DNA of 64,000 bases from Catajapyx aquilonaris (GCA_000934665.2 KZ538054.1:62001-126000); one strand, 5' to 3'. Shown: positions 10,501 through 16,500, numbered from the stretch's first letter. Notes: generated by a model from the letters alone, not told the origin. Program-made: numbers and translations.

Positions 10501-13500
10501 AGCAGAGGGGAGTGGGACTCAATGTGTGCATGTGTCTTAAGCTGACATATCCAGGGATGCTATAAGCATCTAGTCATGGGTCTTTTTGTATTTCATGGAG
10601 TATGGTGCAATACTTATGCTTATGGAAATGGTATGAGTCAGGTGATTAATCATTTGGACACCAATTGGAAACATTAGCTGTTGACAGCACAGGCTTTCAA
10701 TCCTTCCAGTTCCTTTTTTTCAGAATATTAATAAGGTGGATTTTTAATTTTTAATTTTTTTCCCTTAGCTCCTGAATGTAATCCGTGAAAATAGCGTGGT
10801 TGTGATAGTGGGTGAGACAGGGAGTGGAAAGACAACCCAACTGACCCAGTACCTGCACGAGGATGGCTACAGTCGATATGGCCTGATTGGCTGCACCCAA
10901 CCCCGAAGAGTGGCTGCCATGTCTGTAGCCAAGCGAGTCTCTGATGAGATGGGGACTGAACTGGGGGAGGAGGTTGGATATGCCATACGCTTCGAAGACT
11001 GCACTTCAGAGGTATCACATAACATTATTTGCTTACATCTTATTGGTCGTGAAAGACCACATTAACCTTCTATGGACAGATTTTAAAAGTGTTTAAAAAT
11101 TGGTGCAATTTTTCTATAATGTAACTTTATTTCTAATGCAGTACAGCCACAGAGCTCTTGTACCATTAATAGACTAATCACTAAATCAAAAATTAATGTG
11201 GAAGTAAAATGTAGGCCCATTATTTGAATATGGAAACTTTTATTCCTGTGTTTGCCCTCAGATTTTTGTATCATTTTGGAATTAATTTCATGAGTGTTGC
11301 ATAAAGGTGTAGATCTGTTTTGTTTTCCTCATGAAGCACCTCATTAACACTTGCTTGTTTTTTGCCTTGACAGAAAACACTGATTAAGTACATGACTGAT
11401 GGCATCCTTCTTCGTGAGTCCCTCCGTGAACCTGACTTAGATAATTACAGTGCCATCATCATGGATGAAGCTCATGAGAGAGCCCTCAGCACAGATGTCC
11501 TTTTTGGCCTTCTCAGAGAGGTTAGTCACTTGAACTCTCACTTTTGCACAGCACAAGGTCAGTGCTTCTCCCATGTGATGACGGTTCCAACTGGATGTGG
11601 GGGAGGTTGTGTTGCACACCAATGGACGAATTGGGTGCATTGGTGCCACTTGTAGTCAGATGCATTTAGTGCCTGAAAGTGTAAGGAAGGTTCCACAAGT
11701 TCTGATTTCCTCATGTTATGAGAGGGCTTCCAAAATGTAAGCAACAGCTTCGCCCACTGAAAGTTTCGATTTCATAACATATAATCAAAATATCAGTTAT
11801 AATTTTAACTTTGTAAATTACAACACACATTCTAGTGGGGGATTCATAAGGAAATTGTGACAATATTTGCTTCAAGTTTGATTGACTCCAACATCAATAT
11901 GGTATTGGACGATGCACAGGTGGGACAGAATGAAACAGATACAAAGAGAGAAAGAAGATAGCTAGTTGCTTCAAGTAGGCTACATTATGGATATGACTCT
12001 AGCTTGGGCTAGAAACTTAGGTGTAGGAAAATAATTGAAGAGCATACTGTGAAAGCGCGTTTAATGACTTCATGTGTGGGCCTGCCCTTGGACATGACTC
12101 CCAGTTCCCCATTGATGCTGTTGTTGATTCTTATCTTGCTGCCAACTGACCAGAATTCTTCCATGGTGTTAAGGATTACTCTCCCATAATGGGTTTGGCC
12201 ATGAATGATGTGGAAAACAGAAACATTTGGTGAGAATCGTCCTGTTGGAAGAAATGAAGAGTTTACATGTAAATATATCAGTCAAGTTCTGCTAAATTTG
12301 TGCAGGCAGCAAAATAACATTCATGTCACCATGTTGACTGCATAGACCTTAGAATGGGGTGGAGGGGAGGGCACCTTATATTGTGAAAGTTGGCAAATGA
12401 TTTACACAAGTGTGCCAAGAAATTCATGACTGGTTGACTCTGAGTGAGGATGTTGATTTCTTTGATTTATAAAGTAGGTGTATGGCATTACAAACTGATA
12501 TTGAGTGTCTTGGGTTATTGTGAGCGAAACATCACATGGATACTTAGAAGGATACAAGGTACTTATGAAGTCAGAAATTATTGATCTGAATGAAGCTTTC
12601 ACATTAGGTTAATCCACTGCCCAGAAATCATTGGTGAAAATGTAATCACTCACTACAGGCATTTTTAGTCACATGTAATTGAAAATTTTGACTTTAATCA
12701 ATCACATCAGGCCAGAGAAAAATCTTGATTCTTTCCATTGGCTCTACACCTGCCTGAAGCCAATGGCAATGCAGAGGCCTTCCTGGACACAATTCGAATG
12801 TTCTTAATGCAGACTTTCATTGCTCATAACAGTAAAACAGTTGCCTGGTGTGTACACGTACTTTTCACCAATGGAGTGATGACACCTGTTACACCCTTGT
12901 GACTTCCAGTCAAATCTATCATTTCCATCTTGGTAAGTATTGTGTTGGTTGCAAGGCTTAAAAGTCGCTTATAAGTGGCTTAGTAGGGCCTATTTGATAA
13001 AAATGTACCTGATAGTGTCAACCTTCCACTGGAACATCTTGTTGCACTAACAGTGTTTAAACTGCCTCGTCTTTATAATAATTACATGAGGTGTATTGCC
13101 TTTTTCATTATATTAACAATTATAGTAGGTGTAAAAACAACATTTTTGTCATGCACTTAAACTTTCCAATAAGGCAAGCAGTTACCAGCAATCAAAAATT
13201 GCACATTTGCTGAATCTGGCTGCCCTGAAACTACCTGGAAATTTTCTACTTTCCTGGTGATGTTTCACTTTTATATTGATGAAGTTAAACTCATTCAGAC
13301 ACACATGCCTGCAGGAGATTACTTATTCTAGTGGTCTAGTTGGTAAAATGAAACTTCTGATATTTTTTTTCCATTGGGTTATATTTTTCATCCAGACCAC
13401 CAGATTAATATTCTCTTGACGGCCTGTATTTCTGAATGTCATCCATGAGCCCTGGCTTAGTTCAAAAATATTTTGTATACAATGTACAGTGAGGTGTATA

Positions 13501-16500
13501 CAGTCTCAGACTAGACAAGGTATATTGAAACAAAAATATACTCACCCTTATTTTGTGGTCTAAAGGCAATTCCCCAGTGGTACGTCTTGTCATGTCTCAG
13601 CTCTATCACATCTCCGTTGTGGACCTGGAGCAGGAACTGTAACCAGCAGTCCTCATCAAACCACCGGCTGACTCTAGGCCTGCTCTTGTTCACAAGGGGT
13701 TTTCTTACCACCAAGGGAGGAGGATGGGGAAGTGGAGGGATGGAGCCATTGCTGTGATTTAGGAGGGACTTTTGTGGACTGGCAAAACTTCTCTCAGAGA
13801 GGACACCAGGCACAGTTGCAACCCAATTGGGTACCAGGGAGTAATGGGATGAAGGGGAACCCTTGGAAATAGTTGGACATGACATAGACTTATGCAAGGG
13901 AATCTCAGGACCTCCCAGGTTGAAGTGTCGGGCAGGTTTCTTGGGCTGCTTTCCTGTGCATTGGCCCATTGTTGAGGAGGCAACGGACTGTCATGGAGAA
14001 AATGGGAATGAATATTTGCATTTGGTATTGCTAAATATACAGGATCAATATTAAAATTTCCAATTTAATGGTTAATAGTCTATTTTAGGGTACTGGTGAT
14101 TCTGGAATGCACTTGTGAAAAAAATTAGGTCTGCTGCTGAGATAGTAATCATTTTGATAAGAGTATAAGAAAATGTTCTTCTAAATTCCTGTACTTATTA
14201 TCAGTACTTCATTAGTGACTGATTACTATGGGAGGCAAGAGAGGCTGCTTCACTACATGAAGTACAACTTCTGGCAAGGGCTTGCCAGTCATTTAAGAAA
14301 CATGTGGTTTTCAAATTGGACATTATTTGGCCAGGTGGTGGCTGGCAGTGATGGTGAATGGATGGGGGCATTATCATGTTAAGCAAGATTAGTTGTGGAC
14401 ATGCCAGAGCAAAGGTCAACTGAGAATGTGAAATACTTGAATTTTATCATTCTCGTTATGTGAAAGTCTATTCCTATAAGGATATGCGTATGCATCATTC
14501 ACAAAACGAAGAAAATAATTGTATTTTTAAGTTTAGTTTAAGTCACGCAAGTTTCAGTAATTTATTACTAATACTGCAACAATACCAGTTTTGATAACAT
14601 AAAAAATCTATTTAACATATTTGTTACAGTACAATGAGACCACGTCTATCATAATTTTTTCTTTAGAGGAACTTGTTATTTAAAATCTATGTATAACGTT
14701 CTGTACATAATCTCAGGCCCAAGTCAGTATGAACCGCTATGAAATGTTTCTGAACAAATATTAATGCATATCTCACATGGAGAAACTTTTGGTGAAGTAA
14801 CCTTGCTTAATATCATTATAATGACATTATTAGAGAAGATTTTTAAAGTAAAATGCAGCAATAAAAATTACTTCATGCAAGATCCTAATGCTCTTCAGTT
14901 ACCTTCAGTGACTATATGCTGTGCCTTCCCTGACCTAGGCGTGACTGTTCCACAGGTCTCACCAACTGCACTAAACTGCTTTCCAGCTTTTCTCTTGCCT
15001 AATTGGTTTTGACCTCAGCCAGAGATAAAAGTCATACTGTATAATGATAACCTCCGGGGAGGGTGATGGGCATCCTCACGAGAGGGGATGCTGTAGGGTG
15101 AATCAAAGTACTAGGAAACGAGCACTTGTGACTGTCGATTGGATGGCGTGATGCAATAATCGAAAGGATGTTTTCCATCCAAGGACTTTTAAGTCGTTGT
15201 AGGGTGTGAATATGACGTTTCATTGACATGTTGAGTGCACAAGTTGGTCTACGTGACTGATTGGAGGGTGCCTGGCACTAGGTCACTAGGTTTTACAAGG
15301 TTCATTAATGCCAAATAGCTGAACGTTACTGGCTAAGCCTGATTAACAAACCTTGAATTTGAATATCCCCATGTGTCCTTGATGCAACCTGGGAGCAGAC
15401 TGGATTAAATGCTCCCTGATACATATGCCATTAGTCATTCTTATCAGCAGGATTTGATTTTTTGATTATTGGGAGATGTACTGCAGGACATGCTTTCTGT
15501 GGTGCAGCTCTTGCACCCCCTGCTGACATGTGTGCGAAGGCCTGATAGGGAAATGCATCATATCCACTTGGCCTCACAGAAGTGGTTGTGACTTAAGTGA
15601 ATGGAATGGAAATAATCTCTTCACGGTTAACAATCTCAATCGACAGAGACAATGCTCCCTCTCTAACAAAGTCAAGTGAACTCAGCCAATTCTGCTCTTT
15701 TTAAAACTGGATCCAGGGGAGCACATCCTGTGATTTTGGGGTTAATAATTACAGTACTCCCTAAGCAAAGGTCACTTTGGAGCACTTAGGAAAGTGTGTG
15801 TATAAGTTTATGTTTGTCGAGGCAGCTGTGGCATATTTTTGATGGGTTTGGTCATTACATCATATTCTGATTAATGAAAAGATGCAGGTGATATCAAACC
15901 ATGGATCAACTTCTTGTTGGCAGACTTCATGTTACAGATAGCCAAAATCACGTGAAGTTGGAATGACATTTCATGTAACTTTTTTTGCCACACTCGTGTG
16001 TAACTCCCATTGCTGTCTCTTGTGGTTACTTGATGATGCAGGGGTTAGGAGTACAGCCTAATGCTTTTTGATATCACTGTGTTGCCTGTAACCAGTTGGA
16101 ATGTTTCCAATTTTGATATCTTCATGACTAGAGTTTTGGGAGATATTTGTTTTACCATGGTAAAGAAATGTTTATCTGATCATTGCATTATATTTATTTA
16201 ATTAGCTGACAAATGTCCACAGATAAAATAATCTGCTTTAGCTTATCGTAGTCAGTAGTCTACAGAAGTAATAGTTTTATATACTGGTAATTTACCTTGA
16301 AGTACACTTATCAAGTGTAAAGTGCTCATGTCATAAGTGTGTGTACATTTTTCATTCTTCTCACTGGATTAGACTCTGGTGTATGATTGATGGAAATCCA
16401 GAACAAGTTGTAATCCTTGTTGTTTATTGTTTGTTACAATGTTCAAAACAATGAATAAACAGAGATGAACTACTTGTTTTGGGTTTACTCTCTATATAAA

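Follow-up and report, generated by a model that had tools for sequence, protein, structure and literature searches.

The window analysed here, a 64,000-nt stretch of Catajapyx aquilonaris DNA (GCA_000934665.2 KZ538054.1:62001-126000), carries the gene of the spliceosomal helicase DHX38 on its plus strand. The question raised by this locus is whether intron 8 of DHX38 shelters a second, protein-coding gene in antisense orientation and, if so, which kind of protein this gene encodes. The best explanation of the results, and in our judgement probably the correct one, is a spliced gene for 243 amino acids (aa) in this intron, whose product contains an LRAT-like permuted NlpC/P60 domain. We regard the protein as new and divergent but as belonging to a known enzyme superfamily, with a gene whose nested position is conserved, and by analogy with that superfamily it would be catalytic.

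Exons, spliced form and relatives

Three exons on the minus strand join into an open reading frame (ORF) of 732 nt, that is, 243 codons plus the stop codon. The parts of the gene are given in the direction of transcription (UTR, untranslated region; X1, a public run described below):

13970..13989, minus strand: portion of the 5'UTR; the spliced contig of X1 reaches 13989; context of the ATG CAACAATGG
13969-13546, minus strand: coding part of exon 1, 141 codons plus 1 base, ending in phase 1
12242..13545, minus strand: intron 1, 1304 nt, GT..AG, phase 1
12241-12048, minus strand: exon 2, 194 nt, core of the domain with VFHIIHG, ending in phase 0
11673..12047, minus strand: intron 2, 375 nt, GT..AG, phase 0
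11672-11559, minus strand: coding part of exon 3, 37 codons plus TGA (11561-11559), holding the candidate nucleophile Cys218
11358..11558, minus strand: probable 3'UTR, continuous with exon 3 in the spliced contig of X1 and running antisense across DHX38 exon 8

With a slash marking the splice position, intron 1 has the donor AGG/GTGAGT and the acceptor TTCCAACAG/G, and intron 2 the donor ACA/GTATGC and the acceptor CACTTTCAG/G. A preliminary description of this DNA had proposed three exons with splice signals that join in phase into 243 aa, and these exons, with their junctions and phases, were found as proposed. The same applies to its six LRAT/HRASLS-type motifs, which were located in the announced order at residues 119-217 (GDVIE at 119, YHWG at 130, VFH at 150, KIRINN at 177, EVIKRA at 199 and QCTQFVHWC at 217). 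Regarding the gene span of 11559..13987 given there, the lower bound held and the upper bound had to be corrected: the ATG is at 13969, and 13987 belongs to the frame that is open upstream to 13990. The middle exon had been described as missing from the ORF track; accordingly, the default ORF list (start codon, at least 60 aa) contains the ORFs of exon 1 and exon 3 and lacks exon 2. As the middle exon is short and without a start codon, the gene is missed by simple ORF-based annotation. Separately, an out-of-frame ATG is found on the minus strand at 13992-13994, 23 nt 5' of the start codon and just beyond the cover of the X1 contig; if transcribed, it would give rise to a short overlapping upstream ORF.

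The spliced form of the gene was recovered in the public run X1, whose contigs were placed on positions 10600-14600 of the window. One contig of 954 nt lies on 11358-11671, 12047/8-12240/1 and 13545/6-13989 with 0 differing letters and 0 gaps; record positions 1-953 agree letter for letter with the window. At its two joints, 375 and 1304 bases of the window are passed over; both stretches begin with CT and end with AC, and thus read GT..AG on the minus strand. The junctions bridged in this way, 13546-12241 and 12048-11672, are exactly the predicted ones. A second contig of 240 nt falls within intron 1. Cover is lacking at the DHX38 exon 10769-11040 and in most introns, and such holes carry no meaning. 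Contigs give no strand, ends or level of RNA; it is the intron ends that point to the minus strand of the transcript, and the precise removal of two introns that points to an RNA origin of the contig. Because contigs cannot show RNA ends, the contig end at 11358, which falls at a genomic A6 run, is not called a poly(A) site.

Relatives of the gene were then sought at the protein level. No relatives came up when exon 1 and exon 2 were queried against a protein word index, including a longer mode. In the case of phmmer, exon 2 was compared to 1,835,955,588 representative proteins and gave six matches (E 1.6e-4 to 9.6e-4, 40-46% identity). One of these, P0007 (216 aa), is an uninterrupted full-length form; the others are exon-sized and depart from the family pattern after NAF[T/I]V, which corresponds to the intron 2 donor site of the window. 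Searching with P0007 yielded 11 proteins at E <= 0.01 among 160 candidates, the sole named relative being an 'unnamed protein product'/'Uncharacterized protein' of the springtail Allacma fusca. A small protein family is now defined, which public records leave unnamed.

The three exon pieces of the window align to successive portions of these relatives. A profile of nine full-length relatives matched the spliced protein at 116.8 bits (E 7.8e-36, 201 sequences), and the best of 200 shuffles reached 4.8 bits against the same profile. This match consists of one domain, residues 95-228, and spans all three exons. Upstream of the domain, which starts at about residue 95, residues 1-95 are Pro/Ser-rich and no relatives were detected for them. 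BLASTP identity between the spliced protein and its relatives is 35-40%. Using tblastn, all nine relatives matched three colinear pieces coinciding with the exons, with one stray match (E 0.61).

Constraint was assessed on 39 shared codons of exon 2 by comparing nonsynonymous (pN) with synonymous (pS) differences. Among the relatives, pN was 0.011-0.236 and pS 0.69-1.25, with this direction in 36/36 pairs; between the window and the nine relatives, pN was 0.32-0.39 and pS 0.53-0.97 (9/9 pairs). We report pN/pS rather than dN/dS because synonymous sites were saturated in almost all pairs. Two other readings of the locus, a chance ORF and a non-coding antisense transcript, are both rejected by the profile score compared to the shuffles, by the colinear tblastn matches and by pN being lower than pS. 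Frame disruption in relatives, which the preliminary description had named as counting against a gene, was found in none of the relatives and loci compared. We are nearly certain that the nested gene is a real, constrained and spliced coding gene.

The exon structure is shared as well. Metagenome contigs were scanned with the family alignment, which gave nine loci (L001-L009). Five of these (L003, L004, L006, L008 and L009; 1.1-1.4 kb) are independent cDNA-type contigs with an uninterrupted ORF and no DHX38 sequence, and the other four (L001, L002, L005 and L007) are genomic, with the gene split as in the window. Intron 2 is in phase 0 in L001, L007 and L002, after NAF[T/M] or NANS, and intron 1 is in phase 1, after ..NKPG in L001 and ..QNKG in the window.

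These loci bear on another explanation of the X1 contig, namely that it derives from DNA, e.g. a processed copy elsewhere, or is an assembly artefact, so that the locus of the window would not be expressed in spliced form. The run search listed no run recorded as RNA and found X1 alone, with 0.35 of the sampled words. That X1 is the sole run and that its library kind is unrecorded speaks against our interpretation, as does the fact that contigs reveal neither strand nor ends. On the other side, a contig of such near-complete identity has exactly two GT..AG introns removed, and the relatives are represented both by five uninterrupted cDNA-type contigs and by four genomic loci split at matching places. 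Altogether, we find this explanation hardly credible.

Fold class and candidate catalytic residues

Given a coding gene, the question is to which class its domain belongs. In the window protein, the candidate residues are His131 (in YHWG), His152/His155 (in VFHIIHG) and Cys218 of 243. The order His, His, Cys is kept in the window and all nine relatives and represents the permuted order with the Cys near the C-terminus. All members aligned share the Cys and the two His, whose positions correspond to the Cys-His-His triad of the PLAATs as judged by motif order and alignment ranges.

Structure models were obtained with AlphaFold2 for two relatives: model 1 for P0010, based on a 17-row alignment (predicted local distance difference test, pLDDT, 63.6; predicted template modelling score 0.54), and model 2 for P0016, which is 62% identical to P0010 (pLDDT 62.2). 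In these models the His of SHWG (His59/His47) lies in a strand and YHLIH in the adjacent strand, and the conserved Cys (Cys157) is the first residue of the last long helix, 157-170. For the PLAAT enzymes, PMC8154263 describes Cys113 on helix A3, His23 and His35, and the signature NCEHFV. The first His of the family would fall on this His23 of PLAAT4 in both models, as deduced by range arithmetic and not by residue-level alignment (aligned ranges 42..166 in model 1, 30..152 in model 2 and 6..123 in the PLAAT4 chain).

Several structure searches were carried out with these models. In the case of Foldseek, PLAAT4 (7zot) ranked first for model 1 with E 0.057, and seven PLAAT-family entries were within ranks 1-47. 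With VIA-align, the best 10 of 998 chains for model 1 included nine PLAAT/HRASLS chains (Z 5.7-6.8, root-mean-square deviation (rmsd) 2.8-3.7 A, 82-96 residues, 19-23% identity), the tenth being 3kw0. In a search of 48,161 representative chains that was independent of Foldseek, model 1 reached Z >= 5 with three chains alone: 3kw0 (6.3), 7zot (5.8) and 2im9 (5.6). For model 2, this search was headed by 7zot (Z 6.4, rmsd 3.9 A, 96 residues, 23% identity), followed by 3kw0 (Z 5.3). YiiX (2if6) ranked 7 and 15 for models 1 and 2, respectively. Both 3kw0 and 2if6 are presented in PMC3142127 as structurally characterised permuted NlpC/P60 enzymes.

At the sequence level, Pfam LRAT (PF04970; profile length 120, curated gathering cut-off 24.3 bits) was the sole Pfam family matched by more than one member. 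It recurred in four of the 12 rows of alignment A1, which are 4/9 full-length relatives: P0016 (18.4 bits, E 0.0027), P0015 (13.7), P0010 (13.1) and P0013 (12.8), with E values of 0.0027-0.15. Three of the four matches cover profile positions 3/4-113, and that of P0010 stops at 91. In the exon 3 piece of the window, the Cys motif was weakly matched by CHAP (E 8.3e-4, 20.3 bits vs a cut-off of 26), through the Cys region of that profile (positions 3-30 of 81). Of the 30 Atlas clusters nearest to P0010 by language-model features, 28 are LRAT (score 0.92, 183/256 shared features). An Atlas search with exon 2 alone met low recognition and gave no useful family, and phmmer of the three exon pieces against PDB sequences returned nothing relevant.

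A number of observations weigh against an LRAT-like domain. All LRAT scores (12.8-18.4 bits) are below the cut-off, five of the nine full-length relatives lack an LRAT match even at E <= 10, and the separate exon pieces of the window give no Pfam LRAT match. The family profile of alignment A1 found no PLAAT chain among PDB sequences. Foldseek returned no PDB match for model 1 at E <= 0.001, and all Z values are below 8, a range that the tool calls common for unrelated models. The models themselves are of middling confidence, the other four models of the P0016 job reaching 41-47. Finally, the Asn, Glu and His of the PLAAT signature NCEHFV (PMC8154263) are lost, with Cys and Phe retained.

Because all Z values are below 8, the argument does not depend on any single score; it rests on the repeated top family and on the agreement with the other lines of evidence. 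On this basis it is likely, judging from models and sequence, that the domain is a permuted NlpC/P60 domain of LRAT-like type with a predicted working Cys-His-His centre. Of the whole interpretation, the assignment to LRAT/PLAAT stands on the weakest ground. The preliminary description had assigned the C-terminal part to LRAT/PLAAT, which is supported by fold searches and language-model features but not by the Pfam cut-off or the replaced NCEHFV. Among the comparisons it had suggested, Pfam LRAT recurs in relatives but always below threshold (and is absent from the exon pieces), and PLAAT4 ranks first for model 1 in Foldseek and for model 2 in the search of 48,161 chains but with the weak E and Z values given above.

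The main competing explanation keeps the permuted NlpC/P60 fold and an active centre of Cys and His, and proposes other chemistry. For model 1, the bacterial 'cysteine peptidase' 3kw0 matches or exceeds PLAAT4 in score (Z 6.3 vs 5.8), and cleavage of fatty acid-amino acid amide bonds is proposed for the 3kw0/YiiX branch in PMC3142127. The weak match of exon 3 to CHAP rather than LRAT and the departure from NCEHFV can be read in the same direction. In contrast, identity in the structural alignments is higher for the PLAATs (19-23%) than for 3kw0 (13-16%), and LRAT stands out both in Pfam and in the Atlas neighbours. Moreover, the order His-His-Cys fits the PLAAT triad (PMC8154263), whereas the triad of 3kw0 is Cys-His-Glu (PMC3142127). 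We hold other chemistry to be unlikely.

Regarding anchoring, a membrane-helix segment was looked for by hydropathy in 10 members, and none was found, nor was a hydrophobic tail after the Cys motif; the maximal 19-residue Kyte-Doolittle mean ranged over 0.13-0.86 among the nine relatives and amounted to 0.66 for the window protein. This, together with the divergence from the PLAAT signature, could be expected of a non-catalytic scaffold or regulator with LRAT fold, in which the conserved His and Cys would serve structure or binding alone. However, none of the aligned members has lost the Cys or either His position at overall identities of about 35-40%, as expected of a working triad, and a non-catalytic role is very improbable.

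We thus return to the LRAT-like reading and compare it to known systems. The PLAAT1-5 (HRASLS) proteins provide the best structural matches (7zot, 7zom, 4dot, 4dpz, 4fa0, 7c3z, 2kyt and 2lkt), in which the greater part of the domain is aligned. The nested-gene family differs from them by the loop joining the two His strands, which is longer and variable, and by an extra conserved N-terminal helix with VSxWFDxD. In the case of LRAT (PF04970), one of the top structural matches is 4q95, a chimera of HRASLS3 and LRAT (Z 6.6); differences are the lack of terminal membrane helices in the nested-gene family and the scores below the cut-off. The esterification of retinol by LRAT is a vertebrate role. 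The soluble LRAT-domain proteins LRATD1/LRATD2 (FAM84A/B) begin with MG and have a long N-terminal extension; unlike the nested-gene family, they are not known to possess the catalytic Cys.

The likeness to the PLAATs (PMC8154263) consists of two His followed by a helix-borne Cys close to the C-terminus. Two differences from them (PMC8154263) stand out. The sequence NCEHFV of the PLAATs is [T/Q]C[T/S][D/Q]F[I/V] in the nested-gene family (HQCTQFV in the window, QTC[T/S]DFI or HTCTDFI in the relatives), and four of the five PLAATs have a C-terminal transmembrane helix, whereas the nested-gene family has none. The YaeF/YiiX-like enzymes (3kw0, BcPPNE, and 2if6, YiiX) share the permuted papain-like topology; they are bacterial, have 13-16% identity and a Cys-His-Glu centre (PMC3142127) instead of the predicted Cys-His-His. 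As signature and anchor are unlike those of PLAATs and the Pfam score is below threshold, the evidence supports the name 'LRAT-like permuted NlpC/P60' and not that of a PLAAT orthologue.

A possible mechanism can be drawn from these comparisons. The C-terminal ~135 residues (95-228) would fold as a divergent circularly permuted NlpC/P60 (LRAT-like) domain, in which the base His131 and the supporting His152 or His155 are predicted on neighboring beta-strands and the putative nucleophile Cys218 at the start of the last helix. In a manner like that of PLAAT and LRAT, Cys218 would take over the acyl chain of a lipid ester, forming a thioester, from which this chain would then be transferred to water or another acceptor. 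Phospholipids, as for the PLAATs, are a tentative proposal for the substrates by analogy, at somewhat less than even chances.

The N-terminus of the window protein is MGQC. Such a start is typical of N-myristoylated and palmitoylated proteins, and from its sequence it may supply myristoyl/palmitoyl anchoring in C. aquilonaris. The nine relatives start with MK and do not share the MG start, which counts against a general role and makes the lipidation idea a guess at the level of the species.

DHX38 and the antisense position

The host gene on the plus strand was identified as PRP16/DHX38. The ORF 18205-18597 matches human PRP16 with E 3.5e-72, far ahead of DHX8-type chains (E 4.9e-46 or weaker), and the identity given in the preliminary description is thus upheld. 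The parts of the host gene around the nested gene are:

11374-11520, plus strand: DHX38 exon 8, 49 codons, including IMDEAHER
11521-17581, plus strand: DHX38 intron 8, 6061 nt, donor GTTAGT, acceptor TTAAG/G, hosting the nested gene
17582, plus strand: start of DHX38 exon 9

The exon number eight is a count of coding pieces, in which a non-coding first exon would be missed; coding pieces 4 to 8 were corroborated against another genome. At 6061 nt, intron 8 is the longest DHX38 intron in the window, as previously described. The claim of a gene nested within it needs qualification, since the nested gene does not lie cleanly inside: its stop codon and the donor of exon 8 are 38 nt apart, so that almost any 3'UTR has to run antisense over exon 8. 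Eleven poly(A)-signal hexamers were searched for from 11558 to 11245 and none was found; AATAAA is present at 11244 and 11131. As there is no such signal before 11244 and the X1 contig continues to 11358, the nested mRNA very probably covers, in antisense, both exon 8 of DHX38 and the 5' splice site of this exon, although a contig across two genes does not by itself prove one transcript.

To what extent is this position conserved? L005 is too short to inform on nesting, which leaves three informative loci. In all three (L001, L007 and L002), DHX38 exons are on the opposite strand and exon 8 adjoins the 3' end of the nested gene, with the same exon 8 boundaries as in the window and 90-94% identity of this exon in L007 and L002. 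Adjacency and antisense orientation to DHX38 are therefore observed in 3/3 informative loci, in agreement with the conserved nesting that had been proposed as a check. When the ten DHX38 pieces of the window were used as queries, the five located upstream of intron 8 matched L001, four matched L007 and one L002. The five pieces downstream of intron 8 had no match in the metagenome loci, because the loci end before that point; likewise, DHX38 exon 9 was not matched upstream of the nested gene in L001 and L007, both of which reach the contig end there. Full enclosure by the intron in these loci is thus what we infer. The gene has probably been lodged antisense beside DHX38 exon 8 since before C. 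aquilonaris split from these relatives. With its conserved antisense site beside the DEAH-box exon, it offers a clean example of two genes that have long remained nested, and the site is convenient as a synteny marker.

The spacing between the two genes differs. The distance from stop codon to exon 8 is 2054 nt in L001, 1042 nt in L007 and 748 nt in L002, compared to 38 nt in the window; the tight overlap thus appears specific to the genome of C. aquilonaris. In this species, antisense overlap with the gene of an essential splicing factor thus becomes open to testing. A further step would be to see a lineage-restricted, divergent LRAT-like branch, with T/Q-C in place of N-C and no membrane helix, whose gene has long been retained in intron 8 and forms a sense-antisense regulatory pair with DHX38, which we consider distinctly unlikely. 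If true, the nested mRNA would pair with exon 8 of DHX38 and the adjoining 5' splice site and couple a lipid-enzyme gene to a spliceosomal helicase. In the literature library searched, no paper joined DHX38 with 'nested gene', or Collembola with LRAT.

Some minor features were observed in the introns of DHX38. Intron 8 contains a perfect (ATT)30 microsatellite at 17343-17433, about 150 nt before exon 9. An assembly gap (N run) at ~10340-10480, with G/C-rich homopolymer-like flanks, lies in the DHX38 intron before the exon at 10769. Further upstream, ORF translations repeat across strands: 7165-7290 on the plus strand resembles 7458-7961 on the minus strand, and 7091-7294 on the minus strand resembles 7871-8098 on the plus strand. 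The minus-strand ORF 8065-8280 presumably resembles the C-terminal part of a mariner/Tc1-type transposase. With its inverted repeats, the region ~7090-8300, in one of the upstream DHX38 introns, has the appearance of a transposon relic.

Elsewhere in the window, a long open frame is found on the plus strand at 38640-41837 (836 aa, then 225 aa), which is Gln/Pro-rich with a poly-Gln run. Other sizeable ORFs, all on the minus strand, are located at 47659-47949, 51716-52195 and 61887-63356.

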